DNA of 64,000 bases, taken from NCBI GenBank assembly GCA_035479475.1, contig DATIIP010000033.1, forward strand, positions 2,449-66,448, read 5' to 3'. Below are positions 721 through 14,805 of the stretch, one piece after another (the stretch's first letter is position 1; the number at the start of each line of letters is the position of its first letter). Below the pieces are notes generated by a model that was not told where the DNA came from, ran no database searches, and worked only from the letters and a program-made list of their open reading frames with translations. A program made the position numbers and the translations under genes. Source of the DNA: Candidatus Saccharimonadales bacterium (GTDB lineage Bacteria; Patescibacteriota; Saccharimonadia; Saccharimonadales; UBA4665).

Positions 721-2092
721 TGAGCCGCCTGCGCCTACCCTCTGCCGGTATCTGCGGCGCCTCCACAGTAGGCTGGTCGTCTTGCTGGATTACAGGTGGT
801 TCCTCGGGCGGCCGCTGTAGTTCCTGCAGTCGGGTCAACTCTGCCCGATTACTCTCGTACCGAGCCAAAAGGTCATCGTAAGCCGGCCCACGCAGCCGTC
901 GATCGGCGTACAGGTGCTGCATACTCGACAGCTGACCGGCCAGCGTACCTTCTAGGCTAGTAATTGCAAGCTCGCGCTCGTACTGTTCCCGCGCAGCCAA
1001 CTCGGCTTTGTAGTTCGTGCGTACGTCTTTGTCGATCATCCGGGCGATCTCACCCAGGTAGAGCTGCATGGTGGCGGTTTCTGACGCACTCGTGGCAGCG
1101 ACCGTAACTTGTATATCACCCCGGCCCAACTGCTGCAGCGTCAGCAAGAAATCGCGTGTCATCCGATCGGCATGCGGGTTGCTGGTCACAAAGAGCACCC
1201 GTGCGCCGGGCCGCACATCGCAGGTCGCCAGCCATTCTGCTGCCGTGCTCTTGGTATCCGGACGCGCATCTCCTTGGCGACGTTCAACTGCCGGCGCATT
1301 CATAATCTTAAACGCCCTGCCGTCGGGCGTGGTGTATTCATAACTCGTTACCAGTCGGGATGGCACACCCGGGAACACAGGCTGCAAAGTGTCATGAGGA
1401 TTCTGTAGATCGGTGAGTTGCAGGTTGATCCGGCGCGGCTGGAGTGCACCGGCGACCCGCTTGCCCAATGCAATGCGTGCTTGTTCTGTCTCAGTCAAAC
1501 CCCATTGGTTGTCTTCGCCCCACCTGCCGTCTTTCTGTGATTTCTGTACCCATGAGTCAGCCGTAATGTCGAAGCCAGCAAGGCGCCCCCCTGTCGAAAG
1601 CAGCTCCTCGTCTGTACCATCACGCTCCTCGCGCGGCCGTTGGCCGACAGCGATGTTCACTTCACCAATCTGCACACCATGCTCTCGCACAGCCGTTTCC
1701 TCGGTGCCAATCCTGCGGTACAGCGCTGTTGTGGTGCCACCGGCAACAAAGGCGTGGTCGAAAACCGCGCCATCCGGCGGCAGCTTTTCGTCTACCAAAC
1801 CAAATTGTCGAAAGTATGGCAAGGCGGCGGCAAATTCTTCGGGGGTAAATTTGTCTTTCTTCGCACGGTCGCCATGCTCCACACCAATCAGCCCCTGGCG
1901 CAGGTACTGCAAGAACGCTGGATCAGTTGGATCGTCCGACCACCTATCAGCCCGGCCCATGGCGGTAAACATATCGCGCAAGGCAGTGTGATTGGGGGCG
2001 TAGAAATCGCCGGTTTCAATAAAACGCTCAGTGTTCGCAACGGCTACAGCCGTTTTCCAGTCGTCCCAACTGCAATTAACCTGCTCACTCAT
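668..2092 (-). CDS. Hypothetical protein; possible DUF218/YdcF-like core with a coiled-coil and Pro-rich C-terminus
   Basis: 474-aa ORF. 'VAGGTTT' and 'VLFVTSNPHADRM' resemble the GG and VTSxxHxxR motifs of DUF218 (weak, from memory). The 3' end overlaps the ATPase 3' end by 53 nt. Confidence 0.55.
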   Translation of the reverse strand: MSEQVNCSWDDWKTAVAVANTERFIETGDFYAPNHTALRDMFTAMGRADRWSDDPTDPAFLQYLRQGLIGVEHGDRAKKDKFTPEEFAAALPYFRQFGLVDEKLPPDGAVFDHAFVAGGTTTALYRRIGTEETAVREHGVQIGEVNIAVGQRPREERDGTDEELLSTGGRLAGFDITADSWVQKSQKDGRWGEDNQWGLTETEQARIALGKRVAGALQPRRINLQLTDLQNPHDTLQPVFPGVPSRLVTSYEYTTPDGRAFKIMNAPAVERRQGDARPDTKSTAAEWLATCDVRPGARVLFVTSNPHADRMTRDFLLTLQQLGRGDIQVTVAATSASETATMQLYLGEIARMIDKDVRTNYKAELAAREQYERELAITSLEGTLAGQLSSMQHLYADRRLRGPAYDDLLARYESNRAELTRLQELQRPPEEPPVIQQDDQPTVEAPQIPAEGRRRRLISDWLGRVLSGRVRRSS

Positions 2093-2224
2093 AAATCAAA
2101 ACTTCTCCGCGGTATATCAATCAATACTAAGCATCATATTATACAACTTTTTCCTCCCTGATACAATCACAAGGCCTCCTGCTGCACTTCGGTAAATGGC
2201 CGGAGTGCGGTACAATACCCACCA

Positions 2225-2791
2225 ATGAGTGGACAAAACGTGAAAGTAATCTGCCTGCTAGGCATGCCCGGCGCCGGTAAAAGCTCCTGTGTGACGCATT
2301 TGGAGCAAAAGGGCTGGCCATCGGTCTACTTCGGCGGCATTACCATCGACGAGGTCAAAGCCCGCGGCCTGGAAGTAAACGAAGCCAACGAGAAGTTAGT
2401 ACGCGAAGATATCCGCGCCAAAGAAGGCATCGGCGCCTATGCAGTGCGCATCGTTGCCAAAATTGATGCATTGGTAGCCGAAGGTCAGCAGGTTGTAATT
2501 GCCGACGGCCTGTACGGCTGGACCGAATACAAGACCTTCAAGGAAAAATACGGTGACAATGCGGTGATGATTGCCATCGTTGCCCCGCGGCACTTGCGCC
2601 ACGAGCGTTTAGCGCGCCGTCCAGTGCGGCCCCTTAGCGAGGCCGACGCCACTGCCCGCGATTACGCCGAAATCGAAAAGCTGGAAAAGGGCGGTCCGAT
2701 TGCCAACGCCGACTACACTATCGTCAACGATGGCACAGTTGAGACCATGCTAACCAAGCTCGATGGTATCTTGGGCGAGTTCTTAGCCTAA
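2225..2791 (+). CDS. P-loop nucleotide/nucleoside kinase-like protein
   Basis: Walker A 'GMPGAGKS' at the N-terminus; 188 aa, small kinase-fold size; family not resolved. Confidence 0.7.
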   Translation: MSGQNVKVICLLGMPGAGKSSCVTHLEQKGWPSVYFGGITIDEVKARGLEVNEANEKLVREDIRAKEGIGAYAVRIVAKIDALVAEGQQVVIADGLYGWTEYKTFKEKYGDNAVMIAIVAPRHLRHERLARRPVRPLSEADATARDYAEIEKLEKGGPIANADYTIVNDGTVETMLTKLDGILGEFLA

Positions 2792-2798
2792 TAGAGCG

Positions 2799-3949
<1,151 letters not shown>

Positions 3950-3950
<1 letters not shown>

Positions 3951-5707
3951 TAGTGTTCTCCTCTTAGATTATCGCGTAATAGTTTGTCGAGTTCGGCCGA
4001 GCGCTTGAGTAGCGCATAAGCTTCTTCGGGATTGGCGGTTTGTTGTAGTGCAGATAGTCGACTTTTCTCCGTATCTACATATTTTTTGATAATTTTGAAT
4101 TGTAATTCAGCGGCTGCGTAGCCAAGCTCTGTAAGATCGTTGTCTTGATAGAGCGTCTCGTAGACTAATGACAATATTTTAGCATAGTCTGCAAACTTTT
4201 GCAGCATCTCTTTATCGCCGCCGTCGTAGTCTGGGTGGGCTTGCAAAAAGCTGAATACTTTTTCGGCTTGGTCGTTCACAAACATGTCGGTGTTTAGCGA
4301 ATATAAATACTGCCTGAGCTTGGGCTGGAGCAATGCGATAGCCATCAGATGCTCCTCATTACGACCCCGTTCAAACAGATCACGATCCATGGTTTGAGCT
4401 TGCTGCTGCACGCTGCGGCGACGCACTGGCTGGGTCTCGTCCTCTACGCCAGATAGTTTTGTACTCAAGGCCGCTTTATTCACGCTCAGCAGTTCAGCCA
4501 GTTTGCCAATGTAGTGGTCTTGCTCCACGCTATCGGGCAGTTGGCGCACCACGCGCAGCACCACGTCGCTCAGTTCTTTTTTGCCCTGGGCAGTTCCTAG
4601 ATCTAGCTGCTGCACGTAGCGGTCAATCAGCCAATCCACCGCATATTGGGGTTTGGTAATGATATCTTGCCAAATTCTGACATCCTGCTTGATGAGCTCA
4701 TCGGGGTCTTTGCCGCTGGGGATGGTAATGACGCTCAGTTGCACACCCACCTTGGCCGCCAGCGGAATAGCCCGCTCGGTGGCAGCGATGCCGGCGCGGT
4801 CGGCGTCAAAGCTCAGGCGGATGTCGCCGGTGAGCCTGGACATGGCTTTGAGGTGCGGCTCGGTCAGCGCCGTCCCGGCGGTAGCCACCACCTGGCGTAC
4901 ACCGGCTTGGTGACTCTGAATCACATCCAGCTGGCCTTCCGTGAGCACCACAAACTTGCTTTTGCGAATGGCGTCTTTGGCCAAATGCAGACCAAACACA
5001 TGGCGGCTTTTATCGTAGAGCGGCGTGGCTGGTGTGTTGACGTATTTGGGTGCATCCGGGTTGTCTTCCAGCAGCCGTGCCGTAAAGCCCACCACCCGGC
5101 CGCTGGCATCGCACAGCGGCACCATCAGCCGTCCACGGAACATATCACCGCCCCGCTGGCCGCTTAGGCCTGCCAGCTTAATTTCCTGCGTCGTAAAACC
5201 CTTGTTCTGCAAAAACTGTACCAGTGCGCCACCGGTGTTCGGGCTGTAGCCCAGCCGCCATTCCAGCGCCGTAGCCTTGCTAAACGCCCGTTTTTTGAGC
5301 GCGTACTCCAGCGCCGTTTTGTTCTTGCTAAATTGCGTTTGATAAAAATGCGTGGCCAGCTCCAGCGCCTCATACAGGCGCTCTTTGCTTTTGCCGCTCG
5401 GTCCGCGTGCAGCTCCGGGCTGTTTGTACTGGTCCAGATCAATCCCGGCCCGCCGCGCTAGCAGCTCTAACGCAGCGCGAAAATCCAGGCCTTCCACTTC
5501 CATTACAAAGCTGAACATGTCACCACCGCGGCCCGAAGAAAAATCGTGCCAAATCTGCTTATCCGGGCTCACCACAAAGCTCGGCGTCCGCTCCGGGTTG
5601 AACGGGCTCAGCCCCTTCCAGCTGCGCCCCGCCCGTTTGAGCTGCACGTACTCGCCGATCACATCTTCGATGCTCAGGCGGTTTTTGATCTCTTCTTTGG
5701 GGTCCAT
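3950..5707 (-). CDS. dnaG: DNA primase DnaG (zinc-binding domain lacks the Cys/His ligands)
   Basis: '[31 protein letters not shown]' aligns to the CHC2 zinc-finger region. TOPRIM '[10 protein letters not shown]' and '[12 protein letters not shown]' are present. Lies directly upstream of rpoD. Confidence 0.93.
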
Positions 5708-6636: not shown

Positions 6637-6960
6637 CTAGCCAGCCACAACCAGATCGTAACTGTGGCGGATCAGCGTCTGCACCTCGTCCCATGGTAGC
6701 TCGCCGCTCAGCACCAGCGTGTTCCAGTGCTTTTTGTTCAGGTGGTAGCCCGGCATAACTGTCACGTACTTTTCGCGCAGCACATTGCTCAGCTGCGGGT
6801 CGCATTTTAGGCTGAGATTGATTGGCTCTTTCTTTTCAGAGATAAGCGCGAACATTTTGTCGCCCACCTTGTACACCGCCACGTCTTCGCCAAAGGGGTA
6901 ATCGAGGCGGGTGTTCGGCATGCTCAGCAGATATTCTTCTACCGTTTTGTGATCCATCAT
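6637..6960 (-). CDS. MmcQ/YjbR family DNA-binding protein
   Basis: 'DYPFGEDVAVYKVGDKMFALI...LKCDP...PGYHLNKKHWNTL' is typical of the YjbR fold family. Start moved to the internal ATG ATG (MMDHK). Confidence 0.75.
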   Translation of the reverse strand: MMDHKTVEEYLLSMPNTRLDYPFGEDVAVYKVGDKMFALISEKKEPINLSLKCDPQLSNVLREKYVTVMPGYHLNKKHWNTLVLSGELPWDEVQTLIRHSYDLVVAG

Positions 6961-7004
6961 AGATTTGATTGTACCAGATGGTGAACAGAGGTGGAAGCTA
7001 GGGC

Positions 7005-7271
7005 TTAACTCGGCAGCCGCCATTGACCGAGTTTCAGCGTCTGCCAAAATCGTCGCTTTGCTGACGTATTAATCCCCTGACGCTTCTGCCAACGTTTGTA
7101 CGCTCTGTCTAGAGCTTTTGCCATAACATGCACGTTGCGCCAGGTGTCAGCGATGTTGTAGGGCGCTTCGTACCGCCTGTCGTATTGGATGCCACGCAAC
7201 CGATGACCCGCGTGAAATAGATAGGTCTTCTCATAAGAATCACCTAGGAATCGAGCCACAGTGGGCTTCAT
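7005..7271 (-). CDS. Hypothetical ORF downstream of the RHS/immunity pair. The frame is open 5' to about nt 7340 without an ATG; possible orphan or remnant module.
   Basis: ORF only; low GC by eye. The upstream in-frame stretch 'ECKLITLPGKFFIEYADGKFLSDE' has no start codon. Confidence 0.3.
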   Translation of the reverse strand: MKPTVARFLGDSYEKTYLFHAGHRLRGIQYDRRYEAPYNIADTWRNVHVMAKALDRAYKRWQKRQGINTSAKRRFWQTLKLGQWRLPS

Positions 7272-7354
7272 TTCATCTGATAGAAATTTGCCGTCGGCAT
7301 ACTCTATAAAGAACTTACCGGGCAGTGTTATAAGCTTACATTCAAATCACGTCT

Positions 7355-7837
7355 CTAGCGTGTCGTAAAGACTATAATGACATTGACTATGGAGGCTACA
7401 ACTGTAAATGCGGAAAACATTCTGTAAAATACATGGTTCGTGTCTTCTCGATTGTCCTTGTAATAGGTTAATGCTATCGTTGATACACCAAAAACCACAG
7501 CCGGGAGCGAGAACCAGTAGACAAAGATGGAGAGCGTGGCAAATACCACCCCAAAAAGTGCAAAGTCGTTGAGACGTGTGCGTGCAGGCTCCTTTAATTC
7601 ATAGCGCTTATTCACTTTTCTTATCAAAAGCAAGAGACCAATCGAACAGCCAATTAGCAGAATTGCAATGCCGCCCAATAGAGCATCACTCAAAGGTATA
7701 AGCCCAGAGGAGTGTGTCCTATCTGCGTAGATTCCGTAATCGGTAATTCTTTTCAGGGCATACGTGAGTAGACTTAGGCCTATAATGCTCGCTGCCAATG
7801 CTAACCATGCAATTTTCTTAGCTTTTAGTCCTTCCAC
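7355..7837 (-). CDS. Small four-TM membrane protein; candidate immunity protein for the upstream RHS C-terminal module
   Basis: GTG start with AAGGAGG 6 nt upstream, 39 nt after the RHS stop. Four hydrophobic helices. Markedly AT-rich compared with the neighbourhood. Confidence 0.6.
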   Translation of the reverse strand: MEGLKAKKIAWLALAASIIGLSLLTYALKRITDYGIYADRTHSSGLIPLSDALLGGIAILLIGCSIGLLLLIRKVNKRYELKEPARTRLNDFALFGVVFATLSIFVYWFSLPAVVFGVSTIALTYYKDNREDTNHVFYRMFSAFTVVASIVNVIIVFTTR

Positions 7838-7876
7838 CGTATTCCTCCTTACATTCTCTTGGGGGGCCTTCTTATC

Positions 7877-10800
7877 TCACGGGTTACACTGCGCTGCAAC
7901 GGTTGACCAGTAGCCTACGTCCGGTCGGCTGCTATCCAGGTTCCAGCTCTCTTTGTTCGGTGCACGAAGTCTAACAAATTCCCAGTGACAGAAAAACTGA
8001 TCCTGCAGGTTTTTACGGTTGGCGGTTGGCGCTAGCGACTTAACTTGATTCCACGCTTCCAAACCATTTCTGGCATCTGTAACTCTACCCAATTTAGTCG
8101 GATATACCCTCAGTGTATCACCTCTTTTTATGACCTTATCAATATATCTGGGTGGCCGTGGTGTTGTATGCTTGCCAGTAAAGAAATGGACGTTCTTAAA
8201 GAGGTTCTTCCAGCTTATACTGTTTTGCCCACTCAAATCATTATCATTCACTGGATCCTGGGGATATACATAGTCATTGGTATTGCCGCCTTCTACTGGG
8301 TCTATCTGGGCGAATAATCCAAGATGAGAGCTGTACAAGCGACTACCCATTTGGATATAGCCGTGGTCTACGGTATTGCTAAAGGTAAACATTTCGCTGG
8401 AGCCCTTGTAGCCGAAGAAGTCACCGTCGGCATTGGAGGGGTTGGGTGTGGTTATGATGTTGCCGAATGGATCGTACTCATATGTCCAGGCACCGGCACT
8501 GCCGTCCCCATTTGCAACGGCAAAGATATCTCCGTTCATATCAGGCAGCGAGTAAACGTTACTAAAGCTGCTCGGGTTACTAATCTGACTGCCCTGTATG
8601 GTTAAAATGACATTTCCTGGCAATTGAACATATCGTGCGGTTAAGCTAGAGCCCGAGAAATAGGAAGCTATTGGTGTACTAGTAGAGTCCGCATACACAC
8701 GATAGGCAGACGCGTTGCTGCTGTAAGTCTGACGATTTATGGCATCAAACGTCTGCTTAGTACTGAATTCGCTCATGTAGACCGCGCGATCTGACGAATC
8801 GTATTCGATACCAGTTTGCGAGCTGCTGCCTTTGGAAAGGTTCCCGTGCGCATCATAGGTCTCGGTGGTGTAGTCGCTGTCGTTGGACTTGATGAGCCGA
8901 TCTGCATAGTCGTAGCAGTATGTGGTACTCGTGATGCCGTTGATGGACTGTGAAGTGCGGTCGCCGTCTTTGCCAGCATTGGTGTTGTATGTTCCTGTGC
9001 AGCCTGTCGGGGTGCCATAGTTGTATCCAAAGGTCGTCGCACCAAGCCTAGCCGAGGTCAGCCTACTGGCCTTGTCGTATGTATAGGTTTTAGCCATAGC
9101 ATTTTCTGTGCCTGATACGACTTGCCCGGACTGGCTGAGCGTCACCGCATCGGCAATAGTTGTGCCAGGAGCGCTTGTGCCTCTAGTATAGGTAACACCA
9201 CTCTGGCTACCTAAGGTGTCATACGACACAGTCAGCTTCAGCACACCAGCGGCATTGTATGCAACCGCACTAAGTCTACCGTAGGCGTCATAGGTGGGCG
9301 TGGCAATGGTAATTCCTGCCAGTTTTTGCGTCGCCAGTCGGTTGTAATTATCGTATGTATAGCTTTCTGTACCGACGCCCGATTTAGTAATTAGTCTGCC
9401 AAGATTATCATAGACATAGGTAGTGCCATACAAATTATGGGTTGTACCGATGATCTGTTCATCGGTGTAAGCCGTTAGTCGCCCTAGCAGGTCATTGGTG
9501 CTTGTTAGCGTACCGCTGCCGTCAGCTACTGTGTTCACTAGCGGGTTACCGAGGTAAGCATAGTTGGAGGTTATAGTTCGTGCAGAGCGTGTAACGTGAG
9601 TGGTATTTGCAAGCGCCGGATATGTTTGCTGCGTGACTCTGCCCCGGCTATCGTAGGTCGTACATTTCCAGGGGTCGGTATTGATGCGAGCTGCAACTAT
9701 GCGGCCGGCGTTATCATAGACATTCTCTGTTGTAACTGGAGTCTGCGAACCTGCACCATCGGGGTCAGGGCCGGTTGTAATCTTGAGCATGCCGGCCTGC
9801 GAGAACGTCTGGCTAACATTGCACGGGTTTTGTCGGGTTTCGGTGGCGCCGTAATAGCTGTAGTTTGTAGTTACCCCGCCTGGAAGTGCCTTAGAGAGTT
9901 GTCTGAGGAAGCTACCGGTCGCCCCTTGCGTTTCATAGGTGTAGCTCGTGGTTAGTGCCAGGCCAGACGGATCAACCGTATCGGATTGCACTAAACCTAG
10001 TTCTGGGTGAGTACCATAATTGTGCGTCGTTACTTGGTTGCCCACGCTGGCGCTGGAATCGTACGTGGTGTCGGTGGTATCCAGACCGTACAGCGGCGTC
10101 AGCAAACTGCCCAGCGAACTGGTTTCGCTGCCGCCGGGAGGCGTCATGTAGAGCTCCAGGCGGGCGTTGGTGTCGCCCAGCTTGTTGTAGTAATCTAGGC
10201 GCACACGATGCCAGTTTTGGGTGTCGTCGCCTGCGTTGTAGGTAGCAGCAAACGTACCGGTGGGGTGCGAACGCTGCGCGCCGTCGGTCCAATCGTTGAC
10301 GATCAGGTTGTCATCGATCCACAGCCGTACGCCATCGTTGGAGAACACACGGAAGTTGTACGTACCAGTGGTGGTTAAGTGAATATCGCCGGTCAGGCTG
10401 GCGCCCCAGCCGTCGCCGCTGTCGGGCGTGAACGGCGGCGTGCCGTTCCAGGTTTGCAGAACATCGCCGTTACTCGGACCGATGCCGGTAGCATGACTCT
10501 TAGGCGCGCCGAACAACACAGCGGTGCTGCCGCCGGTGCCGTTGGTGGCGCTGACTTCGTTGTAATAGGCGGTGGCCAGGCCGTTAATGCCTTGATCGTA
10601 CCCAGTCTGGTCGTGCGGTACCTGCGGCGTGTAGTCGGTGGGCGTAGTGAGCGGTTTGCGGTCGGTGCCAAACCAAGTGGATGGAGCCGGGCCGTAGGTG
10701 TCGGTCAGGCGGCTGGCGTAATCGTAGAGGTACGTGGTTTCCAAGCCAGTCGGCTCGGTGCTTGAAAGTGTTAGGTCTTTTTTGGCATCCCACACCGTGG

Positions 10801-13800
10801 TTGTGGTGAGGTTGGCTACGTCGGTATCAGTCAGGGTGCGGAAGGTGCCATCGTACGTTACTTTGCGGGTAAAGCCATTCGGCTCGGTGGCGTTGGTAAC
10901 GTGCATGAGCGCGGTATTGTTGGGCAAATACGTGTAGGTGTGTGCCAACGGCGTAGCGCCAGCGGTGGCAGCTGGCAACGTTACACCAACTGCTCGGCCC
11001 AGAGCGTCGTAGGATATAGCCGTATAGGTAGTGGCATCATCCGCGCGAACACCGGCGCTAACTGCATCGTAGGCCAGACTATCTCGTACCTGCACAATGC
11101 GCCCGGCAGTGTCATAGCCGTAATCGGTAGTTTCGGAACCCGGCGCCACGATGCGCGACAAACGGGGGTTACCATTGCCATCGGCCTTGTAAAAGAAGCT
11201 AGTGGTGTTGCCGTCGGAAGTAGTGGCGGCACAAACGTACTGCGTAGACGTAGCGGCCAAGAAGCCAGATGGCGCAGTCGGACAACTATTGGGCGAATCG
11301 CTGCCGTAGTACACCTTAAGCCAGCGCGAACCGCTGACCGGGTCGCTGATTTGCGTTAAATGCACCGGTGAGCCATTGGACGTGCCGTAGGTGTATTGCA
11401 ACGCAGCCGGGTGTAAGTCGTCGGTGGCGGATGTAACCGAGCGGATGGTGCCATCGGTGTTAAAGACGTACGTTTGGCCATCGCTATCTTGCAGTGTTAC
11501 CGTGCCATCACCATTCCGGATCATTTGTCCGACCTCACCCGCTGGCGGTGTAAAACCGCCGTTCACATAGGTGTATTCATGCGATTGACCCTGAGAATCG
11601 TACAGCGTGACTGCCGATGGGTTGATGACTGCGTAATCATAGTTGGCGGTGCCATCGGCGTCCAAGCTCAAGTTCCAGCCATCGGGCAACACTTGGGTGC
11701 CGGGCGACAATGAGGTTGAGCTGACCGGCACACCTTGGGCGTTGCCCTGATTCCCCTGCTCCACGTACAGCCCCATTTGGGCATTACCCGTGTTCTCGTA
11801 ATATTCAACGGTGATGGGCACGGTTTGACCGGCGCTCAGCGTTGTGCCGCTGGCGGCATAGACCAGCGGGCTCGGACCATGATCGGACCAACTGTCCACA
11901 ATCTTGGTGCCGTTTAGGTAAATGCGCACGCCATCGTCACTGCCCGCCCCAAAGGTGTAAGTATCGGCAATCGGTGCGGTAAAGTAGCCGGTCCAGCGCA
12001 CCATAAAATGGTCGGCTGGTGCGCCCGGTGCTGGGGCATTCGCGCCCCAGTTCAGGTTTAAGCTGGGGTCGGTGCGTACCAAAAAGACGCGCGTTGGGTC
12101 GGCCGCGTCGGTGGGAAAATTGTGTGAGCCGTCGTCGGTGTAATAGTGGCCAGCCAGCCCGTGCGCCGTCGCGATGGGCTGAATGCCAGTTTGCAGCCAG
12201 GTGGTTGGGATGGCCTGCGATGCAATGGTGCCGTCGGTGGTTTTTACCAGCATCTGTGCCGAAGCGTTGCCGGTGATCTCGGCGAATTCATAGGTGATTT
12301 GTTCAACCTGGCCGGCCGTAAGCATAACCCCGGTGCCAAACTGAGCCGTGGGGTTGACGCTCCAGCCGTCCACATAGGCCGTGCCAGAACCGTTCAAAAA
12401 GATGCGCGAGCGATCGTCACTGGTAGTACCAAACTGGTAGGTGCCGTTTTGCGGTGCTACAAAGTAACCGGTGTAGCGCGCCAAAAAGTGATCATTATTC
12501 ACTACTCCGGAATACGGGCTGCCGCTACCCCAATCAAAGCTGACGTTGGGATCGGTGCGCGTGATGAGCGGAGCACTCGATGGAAACACCAATGTCCCGC
12601 CCGGATCATTCCAATATTGGCCAATCAGTCCGGCACTCGAGCGCTGCGGCGAGTTATAATCAAGCCCTAGCCCAAGCGTGCCACCCAGCGCAGCCACCGA
12701 ATTAGTCTGATTGCTAGTGGTTACATTACCGGTAGCCATATCAACATCTACCGGACCCATGCTGTCCAGGCTTTGTGTACTGTCGCGGCCATTGCGCAGA
12801 TCCACCCGGAACGAATAGACCGGCCCATACACCTGCGGCGCCCCGCTGTAGCTATCCCACACCACTGGCTGCCAGTAGTAGGTGGTACCGTCGTGCAAGA
12901 CATTGGCCGGCAGCGTCCATTGAGCCTGGTTAAGCAAACCAGAATCAGCAATCACTCCGGTGACGCCTTGTTGAATGTGGAACGGATCGTTTTGCGGCAG
13001 GTTTTTGCCCATGCCGACGATATAGCGATATTGCAGTGGCCCCGGACCATCCGGGTCGCTCGGCGTGGTAGAACCCAGCGTGGGCTGCAACGACGCTGTG
13101 CTGCCACCGTCGACCGGTGCCGGAATGCAGGGAGAGGCTGTGCAGATGGTGCTCTGTGCGGGCAGTGTCTCGTAGGTAAAGGTGACGCTAGTTTGCGTGT
13201 TATCGAAGAATTTGTAAGTATCGGCCGAGGTCTCTTCGCCTCTCACAATCATCCAGGGGCTGGTATCGCTAGCGGCTACTGCCGCTCGGTACATCGAAGC
13301 CATTTCGATGTCGCCACTCGTCGCAATAACGCTACTTGCTTCACCATAGGTACCTGCCGGATCAACGCAGTTGAACCCATTGGTACAGCTGGCGTGGTCC
13401 ACCGTAATAGTCTCGTTGCCGGTGGTGCCGTAATCGTTGCCGTCAGGCGTGGGCATTTGCAGGTGCAGCTTGGCACTCACCAGATATTGCCCAGGTGAAG
13501 CTGGCACAGCCGCCTGGTACACAAACCGCCAATAATCATCTGCGATGGCATCATGGCCCACACTGTTGCCGCAGCCCTGCCCAGGCCCGCACGATAGCCC
13601 AAAGTCACTCTCGAAATTGTTATAATTGCTGCCCTCCGGCACTGTAAACACTGTGGGGTCGATTACCAACGGGAAGGCTTTTTTGGGCTGTGCAGACAGC
13701 CAATCCTGGTCAACCACCACGCTTAGCACATTGCCCGAGGCGCTTTGCGTAACCGGTGAATCTTTAGCCACAATGCTGCCAGCAGCAGTACGCACAGTGG

Positions 13801-14674
13801 GCGCGGCCAGCACAAAGCCGCTAAATGCACCGTCTAACGCATACGCGCCATCTTGCCCGCTGACCGGTGTTAAATGAGCACCGGAAACCGCAAAACCATA
13901 CTGCGGCACAGCGTTCTTGTTGTGCAGCACGATGCTTTCCTTTACCTGCGAACCGCTGACGTTGTAGCGCAGGTCTACGCCGTTCCACAAATTGGCGTAG
14001 GTAACGGTTTGGGCCGAGCCCCTGCCCGATACAGTTGGATTCACAGCATTGGCGTCTACTGGCAGCATGCGAAAGGTTTGGCCGTCTTTGGCCAGTGCCA
14101 CGCCATAGGTTTTGGCATTGCCAAAGCTAGCTTGCCAGGCATTGGCCCGGGTACGCCACACACCGTCCGAGCCTTTTACGAGCGATGAATCAACATTTTG
14201 CCACTTGCCATTAGCGTCTTGATAGCTCGTGGCCTGGGCGGTATACACCACCGATGTTGTGCCATCGGCGTTGCGGTATTCCCGGCTATTGGCCGTCCGG
14301 CCAGTACTGAGTAATTGTACGTGTGTAAAGTTTTCACTCTTGCCCTTGGCGGCCGCGGCTTGCTGAGCAGCCAGCTGTGCGCTGAGTTTGGAAGAAAACG
14401 GCGCGCCAGCAGCCAGGCCCGAGCCACTAGCGGCCGGGGCGTACTGCAAGGCAGCATCGCTGGTAAGCGCTTGCGGCGTATGGCCACGTTTCGCCAAATA
14501 GTGCTCGATGTAGCTATAGAGCCCCGACGGGCCCGCGCTAGCAAACAGCAGCACCAGCAAAGAAAAAACACTGAACGTTCGGTAGCTCAGTGTTTTTACC
14601 CTTTTGGCTGGCCCCGTGCCGGTCCGAATACTATAGAGTTTTCTTCTGTTACCCCACGTTTTTATAAGCCGCAT
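7877..14674 (-). CDS. RHS/YD-repeat protein with N-terminal signal anchor, three PA14 domains and a short C-terminal variable module (polymorphic-toxin architecture)
   Basis: YD repeats ('YTYDNYNRL', 'YDAYGRL', 'YTYDKASRL', 'YEYDPFGN'). RHS core end '[41 protein letters not shown]'. ATG at 14674 has AGGAGG 4 nt upstream; the track start at 14692 is less likely. Confidence 0.9.
7880..8224 (-). other. C-terminal variable module of the RHS protein (115 aa after the core-terminal motif)
   Basis: Sequence after '...[11 protein letters not shown]'. It ends '[44 protein letters not shown]', which I recall as resembling DUF2599-type proteins (memory only). Confidence 0.6.
10140..10585 (-). other. 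PA14 domain 3, inserted within the YD-repeat region (approximate bounds)
   Basis: '[11 protein letters not shown]...[26 protein letters not shown]...RLDYYN'. Confidence 0.7.
11760..12161 (-). other. PA14 domain 2 of the RHS protein (approximate bounds)
   Basis: '[16 protein letters not shown]...[35 protein letters not shown]'; tandem to domain 1. Confidence 0.8.
12230..12635 (-). other. PA14 domain 1 of the RHS protein (approximate bounds)
   Basis: '[12 protein letters not shown]...[35 protein letters not shown]'. Confidence 0.8.
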
Positions 14675-14805
14675 AGTGCCTCCTTCAGTCAATCCTAAGC
14701 AAGCTCATACTCCCACGCTACGCTCAAAAGCATTGGTGAATTTTCTTACAATAGTTTGTTCATTTTTGTATATTTCAGACGCTTTTAAGCTTTCTAGATC
14801 GCAGC

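Follow-up and report, generated by a model that had tools for sequence, protein, structure and literature searches.

The gene described here raises the question of what a giant RHS protein of a Saccharibacterium carries at its C-terminal end and what this end may do. It lies on the minus strand of a stretch of 64,000 nucleotides (nt) from Candidatus Saccharimonadales bacterium (assembly GCA_035479475.1, contig DATIIP010000033.1), referred to below as the window. The last 115 amino acids (aa) of the protein, encoded at 7880-8224(-) and ending in ...AAQCNP before a TGA stop codon, form a tip beyond the RHS core. The original prediction, made from the letters of the window, had given these coordinates, to which the minus strand has to be added, and had suggested that the tip is a payload related to DUF2599. 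The analysis presented here makes it probable that the gene encodes a Sec-exported, WapA-like RHS polymorphic toxin with a DUF2599 payload and a four-transmembrane immunity protein, the toxin acting on the outer face of the target's envelope.

The tip belongs to the family DUF2599 (PF10783). The Pfam profile matches it at 93.3 bits against a gathering cut-off of 25 (E 1.4e-26), and a six-frame search of the genome with the same profile returns the window tip at 93.7 bits. The profile search that had been proposed as a check therefore confirmed the family, although the extent has to be corrected: the likeness had been noticed over the last ~45 aa, whereas the match spans residues 34-115 of the tip, about 82 aa, and profile positions 11-93 of 94. 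Families other than DUF2599 were not matched in the tip by the Pfam and NCBIfam scans, in keeping with the earlier remark that it does not resemble nuclease, deaminase or ADP-ribosyltransferase toxins. Two parts of the tip can be distinguished. The first is a short linker (8126..8224, minus strand), which is predicted with low confidence in the AlphaFold model and is not hydrophobic in translation; other DUF2599 tips have hydrophobic or basic linkers of 60-100 aa at this position. The second is the DUF2599 domain itself (7880..8125, minus strand), a candidate toxin that Pfam, alignment and AlphaFold model describe as a small alpha/beta domain with two invariant cysteines.

Word-indexed searches found almost no RHS-linked relatives of this domain: among proteins of 1250-3970 aa they returned only the window's own protein, and with the tip alone as the query they returned two short proteins. 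For this reason, an exhaustive HMMER search over 1.84 billion representative proteins was needed, which yielded 418 DUF2599 relatives at E <= 0.001. In a 40-sequence alignment (A2), the invariant positions are the P and R of YPT..GR, a W, Q-x-x-C-H, a K, the W-x-L of WNL(D/E) and the terminal C-N, and the window tip keeps 11 of these 11 columns. The domain ends proteins almost as a rule, since it lies at most 15 aa from the C-terminus in 142 of the 148 good matches. Both QxxCH and the terminal CN are kept in 140 of 142 matches, and a signal-like hydrophobic N-terminus is present in 76 of the 105 longer DUF2599 proteins that are not RHS proteins.

The AlphaFold2 model of the tip reaches a predicted local distance difference test (pLDDT) score of 96-98 over the DUF2599 domain. 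The modelled fold consists of a beta-hairpin, short helices, a long helix containing QFFCHW, a short strand with WNLD and a C-terminal helix, followed by CNP. Foldseek found no neighbour of this domain model in the PDB (best E 1.7, TM-score 0.25) or among the predicted viral structures of BFVD (best E 0.66), and the DUF2599 sequence profile hit PDB sequences only at chance level (E 1.1). A papain-like or NlpC/P60-like interpretation of QFxCHW was dropped because the cysteine is located inside the long helix instead of at its N-terminus, and because a fold match is missing. With its conserved R, Q, H, K, N and D/E residues, the domain is suggestive of an enzyme more than of a pore former. Within the literature searched, DUF2599 is mentioned in only four papers, and none of the mentions is functional.

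The protein that ends in this tip is encoded by an RHS/YD-repeat polymorphic-toxin gene, as judged by Pfam and NCBIfam scans of its translation. The open frame covers 7877..14692(-) and has 2271 codons, from a TTG at 14692 to the TGA stop at 7877-7879. The gene likely starts at the ATG at 14674, so that it extends over 7877..14674 (minus strand) and encodes 2265 aa; the public gene call (P0003) also begins at this ATG, six codons into the frame. Two numberings of the protein are consequently in use. The residue numbers 2151-2265 of the original prediction follow the public gene call, whereas D2131 and Q2156, discussed below, are counted in the 2271-aa frame. From the N-terminus onwards, the protein consists of a basic region with a hydrophobic signal or anchor, a DUF7948-like part (a weak Pfam match), three PA14 domains (E 9.5e-50, Pfam), one of which lies within the repeat region, a YD-repeat shell, the RHS core and DUF2599. 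The repeats are recognised by RHS_repeat (PF05593) in five stretches, at 48.5 bits against a cut-off of 22, and by the NCBIfam model TIGR01643 at 24.2 bits against 15.8. Neither PAAR nor any other type VI secretion system (T6SS) domain was found by these scans in the whole protein. The hydrophobic segment after the basic N-region, 15 aa read from the translation (14534..14578, minus strand), is a candidate Sec signal peptide or signal anchor, through which the protein may be exported.

Between shell and tip lies the end of the RHS core, 26 aa from D2131 to Q2156 (8225..8302, minus strand), as delimited by the lineage alignment. The profile of the RHS-associated core, TIGR03696, matches residues 2073-2156 over its entire length (positions 1-76 of 76), with 31.1 bits against a cut-off of 32.5. 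The core ends with the motif DPVEG-(16)-DLSGQ, in which D2131 and D2152 are candidate catalytic aspartates of a self-cleaving protease; cleavage is predicted to occur after Q2156. The RHS C-termini of related loci have a common junction, QMGARVY.P.LGRF...DP(V/I)EGGT.N.YVY..DP(V/I)N..D(L/Y)(S/N)G, past which they continue with unrelated tails of 38-204 aa. In the lineage alignment of 11 sequences (A6), the positions D46, P47, G50, G51, N54, Y56, Y58, P62, N64, D67 and G70 are invariant. Both aspartates, the glycines, N-x-Y-x-Y and P-x-N of the junction are thus kept in all 11 sequences, while the canonical second Pro and the final Leu of DPxGL are replaced throughout the lineage.

A phmmer search of the PDB with the last 383 aa of the RHS protein retrieved nothing, and only the profile of the lineage junction reached Rhs cores. 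It matched the C-terminal core of 8H8A at E 3.6e-5 and, more weakly, 8QJA, 7Q97 and 8CP6/Tse5. The stretch that can be aligned with the solved Rhs cores comprises about 40 residues, and the D-L-S-G of the window aligns to the chain-terminal D-P-T-(G-L) of 8H8A. The original prediction had quoted DLSGQ correctly as standing in place of the usual DPxGL, but the replacement is not peculiar to this gene. Judged by the lineage alignment and by the alignment to the solved cores, DLSGQ is the lineage's ordinary form of the second DPxGL and no defect of the window gene.

What follows the junction differs from one related gene to the next. When the last 560 shell residues were searched against 40 related genomes, homologous RHS genes coding for 2236-2844 aa were found in 8 of them, with ~50% identity over these residues, and most of the matches stop at the junction (query position 559-560). 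Six tails from five relatives, 28-197 aa long, are related neither to one another nor to DUF2599. One of them, from a genome of the same family (L046), is Ntox33 (PF15533, E 8.7e-17), and a second one contains a GIY-YIG-like segment that remains below the cut-off (E 8e-4). Besides Ntox33, a comparison of the remaining RHS tails and membrane proteins with curated families gave nothing. Since the junction profile aligns with solved Rhs cores and the orthologues carry other tips at this position, it is supported that the DUF2599 tip occupies the RHS payload slot, as had been proposed. Polymorphic toxin systems are defined by just this combination of a fixed delivery part with exchangeable tips.

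The membrane protein of 160 aa, whose gene had been pointed out downstream of the RHS gene, is present and is conserved alongside DUF2599 tips. It has a GTG start and four hydrophobic segments, is encoded at 7355..7837 (minus strand), and is the candidate immunity protein. A ribosome-binding site, AAGGAGG, can be read at 7844..7850 (minus strand), 6 nt ahead of the GTG. The gap between the RHS stop codon and the gene amounts to 39 nt and is free of terminator-like sites on the minus strand. The protein matches no Pfam or NCBIfam family above cut-off, known immunity families included (unrelated membrane families give only hits below threshold, such as TctB with 23.2 against 29.1 bits), and instead defines a small family of its own (alignment A4). 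Its relatives are L027_158 (E 3.7e-13, full length), L029_74 (E 5e-9, N-half), L029_88 (E 1.4e-8, C-half), L028_62 (E 2e-8, N-half), L031_108 (E 1e-6, N-half) and L002_161 (E 3e-6, or 7e-9 without composition correction, N-half to full length). Its two halves correspond to adjacent genes for proteins with two transmembrane segments, at L029:4768-4992 and 5146-5412 and at L028:2682-2870 and 2915-3094. The 160-aa protein looks like a fusion of two such genes, or the pairs in L029 and L028 like the products of a split. Between its first and second transmembrane segments lies the loop GIYADRTHSSG (7703..7735, minus strand, alignment A4). The pattern of this loop in the N-half is G-x-(Y/N)-A-D-x5-G, with G35, A38, D39 and G45 invariant in six proteins, and according to the positive-inside rule and the charge distribution it would face the outside of the cell.

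The association of tip and membrane protein is not confined to the window. A small membrane open reading frame (ORF) lies directly downstream of DUF2599 in all nine RHS-type loci (9/9). Set against a background of 12% small multi-transmembrane ORFs, a deliberately generous estimate taken from the window, this pairing has a rough binomial p of 5e-9. The family with the G-x-Y/N-A-D loop accounts for six of the nine loci, and a soluble cytoplasmic immunity candidate was seen in none of the nine. Homologous pairs of tip and membrane protein with 40-57% identity occur across several metagenomes, which implies selection.

The same module had been expected at the C-termini of other RHS proteins; it was found there, mostly in the form of orphan modules. 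An RHS shell or core forms the start of at least 10 of the 150 best representative DUF2599 matches (P0004, P0006, P0009, P0010, P0020, P0023, P0031, P0032, P0089 and P0104). Orphan RHS-DUF2599 modules are present in five loci from metagenomes or metagenome-assembled genomes (MAGs), in four of them behind a full or truncated RHS gene. In L029/L030, L032 and L033, a PA14-RHS gene for 2384-2625 aa has its own tail and small downstream genes, and behind it follows the orphan module, made up of an RHS core stub, a linker and DUF2599, and then a small ORF. L002 contains a truncated RHS 3' end with its own tail and then a similar orphan module, and L028 a further one, with no RHS gene in the available part of its contig. 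Imm44 is encoded in L032, and an Imm33-like protein in L002, together with a weak DUF4265 match. A different arrangement is seen in L026 (genome G130, same class; 1498-3040, minus strand), where an RHS 3' fragment is followed by a separate DUF2599 ORF of 101 aa and four small membrane ORFs. The RHS frame of this locus stops 38 aa past the junction; the DUF2599 ORF lies ~125 nt further downstream, has no RHS stub, and represents either a tip in decay or a gene in its own right. When 122 domain sequences were placed in a maximum-likelihood tree, those linked to RHS came together in one group of 19 rows with weak support (80/73), apart from two large actinobacterial clades; this grouping is only suggestive.

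Some of these loci also show how the parts behind the junction are combined. The main tail and the orphan module are alike for the first 30-60 post-junction residues and then diverge, both in L033 (1-3161 and 4001-4783) and in L002 (2-793 and 2722-3306). In L033, these common residues form a linker of hydrophobic, helix-like character, QWSLW.AIVSVAK.VVKAVVA.... This linker may be exchanged as a unit of its own and perhaps serves as a helper that acts on membranes. Genes resembling Y1 transposases (PF01797, weak) are located beside orphan modules at L028:373-792 and L032:2152-2766, which hints at a transposon-assisted movement of cassettes.

The base composition of the window changes around the tip. 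The guanine-plus-cytosine (GC) content is 55-61% upstream and drops to 43-50% between ~8950 and 7150. The low-GC block (7150..8950, minus strand) delimited by this profile comprises the last ~350 RHS codons, including the tip, and the membrane-protein gene, and its upstream edge corresponds to about residue 1915. The 368-aa module P0006 aligns to residues 1917-2271, with 42% identity overall and more over the tip. The agreement of the GC edge with the start of P0006 suggests a preferred recombination point ~240 residues ahead of the junction. PF10783 was detected in 2 of 301 sampled genomes of the class and in 5 of 401 of the phylum, and the immunity-like membrane family in 2 of the 301 genomes of the class, one of them borderline. 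The simplest reading is that the RHS 3' end has been replaced by a tip-immunity module from a lower-GC relative, in the way known for orphan modules of other systems, and the low-GC block is likely the unit of such cassette exchange. The genome itself has a size of 1.19 Mb at an estimated completeness of 99%, and the sampled class members range from 0.7 to 1.4 Mb. Beyond the membrane gene, an 88-aa ORF (7005-7271(-)) overlaps the frame of a YjbR-family gene (6637-7047(-), annotated as PF04237 in the public call) and is possibly no gene at all.

Outside RHS proteins, the genome scan with DUF2599 yielded 22 loci, mostly from Actinobacteria. Secreted DUF2599 proteins of ~250-350 aa, some of them frameshifted, are accompanied in 7 of 7 loci by a small polytopic membrane gene that overlaps the stop codon or lies at most 10 nt from it. 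These loci belong to Leifsonia, Streptomyces, an Actinomycetes MAG, Ornithinibacter, Agromyces and two Actinomyces. Six of the seven membrane genes form one family with two transmembrane segments and the loop ...NRAEEHGFDP..LLP. Homology of this family with the G-x-Y/N-A-D family of the RHS-type loci was rejected: given an hhalign probability of 0.7%, the "aromatic-A-D" motif after the first transmembrane segment is no evidence of common descent. In oral Actinomyces, two paralogous NRAEEHGFDP genes are located around one secreted DUF2599 gene, at 2444-2767 and 4243-4578 in L020 (Actinomyces acetigenes) and at 4306-4710 and 4914-5312 in L022 (Actinomyces israelii), an arrangement that resembles an immunity-gene expansion. 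The DUF2599 frame of L022 appears to be split, with hosts of 263 and 117 aa. For the 320-aa protein of Leifsonia, the model (pLDDT 91, predicted TM-score (pTM) 0.84) shows an all-beta N-domain packed on DUF2599. A Foldseek search with this model gave N-terminal beta-sandwiches of glycoside hydrolases, with a best E of 2e-3 and TM-scores of at most 0.33, which were too weak to be accepted. A second family of the candidate phyla radiation (CPR), f54 (L034-L042, GC ~30%), has 2-4 DUF2599 genes per genome. They encode mostly secreted proteins of 345-390 aa as well as shorter copies, some are interrupted by stop codons, and small ORFs with 2-4 transmembrane segments follow them in at least four of six loci.

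Smaller DUF2599 proteins of 139-165 aa are encoded in L011, L012, L014, L016 and L021, which are Mycobacterium-like or derive from Actinomycetota MAGs, one of the loci being labelled Chloroflexia. They are directly preceded by a conserved membrane protein of 90-98 aa with the pattern ...YAFVHAA.QR.DAYTAA.K.TKPVWL...VDVRPK.LEIQGKSR, and in L016 a DeoC-like ORF follows the DUF2599 gene. The Mycobacterium-like arrangement may resemble the Rv0476-Rv0477-deoC region of M. tuberculosis. The opening lines of the papers found on Rv0477 describe no function. PF10783 has been listed in the literature among the families most expanded in mycobacteria, and HvnA of Pseudomonas aeruginosa carries the domain behind a halovibrin one (PMC3510237).

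The mechanism that we propose for the window gene starts with the N-terminal signal or anchor, which would carry the protein across the membrane. The three PA14 domains would, to go by their domain family, bind glycans of a neighbouring cell. The YD-repeat shell would enclose the 115-aa tip, which the RHS aspartyl protease would free by cleavage after DLSGQ. The freed DUF2599 domain, presumably toxic, would then act at the outer face of the target's cytoplasmic membrane or on wall precursors, and not in the cytoplasm. Such an extracytoplasmic action is proposed because of the two invariant cysteines, the signal-like N-termini of most relatives and the membrane-embedded partners. The four-transmembrane protein would shield the producing cell and its kin, and may do so by binding or blocking the toxin via its outward G-x-Y/N-A-D loop. 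A cassette composed of the final ~240 residues of shell and core, the tip and the membrane gene appears to have been acquired as a whole, by exchange, from a lower-GC relative.

Several observations weigh against this mechanism. Cleavage is not assured, since the canonical Pro and Leu are missing from the second core motif and TIGR03696 stays below its cut-off. Three of the nine RHS-type loci (L026, L032 and L033) have different small membrane proteins, and the membrane proteins could be functional partners instead of immunity proteins. Conserved copies in the form of small secreted proteins or lipoproteins occur in Mycobacterium- and Nocardia-like genomes and have the look of housekeeping more than of warfare; no adjacent membrane protein was found in the seven Nocardia loci, several of which encode lipobox-like N-termini. 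In HvnA, DUF2599 could be an accessory module.

These copies lead to a reading in which DUF2599 is a non-lethal envelope effector or adhesin of the relation between epibiont and host. The Saccharibacterium would deliver its copy of a domain that the hosts secrete themselves, so as to remodel the host envelope or dock onto it, with the membrane protein as a partner, an anchor or a means of self-protection. The family consists mostly of Actinobacteria-like secreted proteins and lipoproteins, and Actinobacteria are the usual hosts; besides the housekeeping-looking Mycobacterium and Nocardia copies and the HvnA copy (PMC3510237), the expansion of PF10783 in mycobacteria points the same way. The rarity of the domain in the class (2/301) and phylum (5/401) of the producer fits horizontal acquisition, the PA14 domains suggest glycan binding to another cell, and DUF2599 packs on the all-beta N-domain in one compact model of a ~320-aa protein (pTM 0.84). 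However, orthologues hold Ntox33 and a nuclease-like domain in the same slot, orphan modules adjoin genes of Imm families, and the RHS-type tip is accompanied by a cognate membrane protein that diverges fast, as is typical of toxin-immunity pairs. Moreover, the RHS-linked copies stand apart from the two actinobacterial clades, so that direct capture from a host is not shown. A role as effector or adhesin is therefore considered unlikely.

The remaining alternatives concern the site of action and the integrity of the tip. Most characterised RHS tips act in the cytoplasm. DUF2599 might likewise be translocated and exert its toxicity inside the target, as a nuclease or NADase of new fold for instance, with the membrane protein blocking its entry; the long hydrophobic or basic linkers of many other DUF2599 tips could aid membrane passage. 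This is quite improbable in view of the two invariant cysteines, the signal-like N-termini in 76 of the 105 longer non-RHS members, the lack of a soluble cytoplasmic immunity candidate in the nine RHS-type loci, and the linker of the window tip, which is short and not hydrophobic. Just as little can be said for the view that the tip is an inactive structural plug or a decayed remnant and the RHS protein only an adhesin. The tip is short (115 aa), its cleavage motif is non-canonical, and the Pfam and NCBIfam scans found no catalytic motif of a known family, but it keeps all 11 family-invariant residues and scores far above the cut-off. The reading frame is intact, as is the downstream gene with its strong ribosome-binding site, and the homologous pairs of tip and membrane protein at 40-57% identity imply selection, which makes decay very improbable. 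The envelope-acting polymorphic toxin thus remains the preferred explanation.

A wider hypothesis would extend this explanation to the whole family. All DUF2599 domains might be exported antibacterial toxins of new fold that act on the outer face of the envelope, each neutralised by a cognate, fast-evolving polytopic membrane protein; this is a tentative proposal that may well prove too broad. If it is true, the secreted ~320-aa proteins of Actinomyces, Leifsonia, Streptomyces and Agromyces, the copies of the second CPR family and the RHS tips would all be bacteriocin-like toxin-immunity modules. The Saccharibacterial RHS version could then be directed at the envelope of the actinobacterial host or at competing epibionts on that host. 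Actinobacteria are the organisms to which Saccharibacteria live attached, and it adds interest that DUF2599 is commonest in the phylum of their hosts. Through the window gene, a family of 418 representative clusters at E <= 0.001 gains a concrete candidate role. If the domain is toxic, it represents a new toxin fold, as its model is without a neighbour among solved structures. The new polytopic membrane-protein families, as candidate immunity factors, would point to an envelope target; to our knowledge, few mechanisms of envelope-targeting toxins have been described in monoderm bacteria.

The closest known systems are WapA of Bacillus subtilis and other Sec-dependent YD-repeat/RHS contact-dependent toxins of monoderms (PMC4436062), including WapA of Streptococcus suis (PMC12704120). 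The window protein has in common with WapA an N-terminal export signal, which is putative here, surface or carbohydrate-binding domains, a YD shell, an RHS core and a variable tip, without T6SS parts. The candidate immunity gene is likewise directly downstream, and orphan tip-immunity modules occur as well. Unlike in WapA, the binding part consists of three PA14 domains, DUF2599 stands in place of a tRNase or DNase as the tip, the candidate for immunity is polytopic in the membrane and not soluble and cytoplasmic, and the second core motif of the lineage is D-(L/Y)-(S/N)-G and not DPxGL.

Among Saccharibacteria, the soil organism "Candidatus Teamsevenus rhizospherense" encodes an RHS/YD/PA14 protein, 2487 aa long and with an immunity gene next to it, that has already been read as a possible secreted polymorphic toxin (PMC6031116, Starr et al. 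2018). It was the only case found in the literature searched for Saccharibacteria with Rhs or polymorphic toxins. Compared by description only, it and the window protein come from the same phylum-level group and agree in size class and in their PA14 and YD/RHS architecture; that paper neither names the family of the tip nor analyses the immunity protein.

The solved Rhs cocoons 8H8A/8H8B, 7Q97 and 8CP6 (Tse5) resemble the window protein in R-x-Y-x-P-x-(L/I)-G-R-F-x-x-x-D-P ... N-x-Y-x-Y ... P ... D, with both aspartates, but they are T6SS effectors of diderms and have the canonical DPxGL. The actinobacterial PF10783 proteins and HvnA (PMC3510237) share with the tip all invariant residues and the position at the extreme C-terminus; they are usually exported and often encoded beside a small polytopic membrane protein. 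The actinobacterial ones differ in being Sec-secreted proteins or lipoproteins (130-400 aa) whose N-terminal parts are of other kinds, and not RHS tips. RHS polymorphic toxins as such are well known, and the assignment of DUF2599 as a toxin would be new but would extend a known kind of system. Envelope-acting toxins with membrane-bound immunity include the LXG toxin TelC with TipC, and TspA with TsaI. The window system, for which no relationship to them in sequence or fold was found, would follow a common logic, in which an extracytoplasmic toxin is matched by a membrane-anchored or polytopic immunity protein that is sometimes present in several copies.

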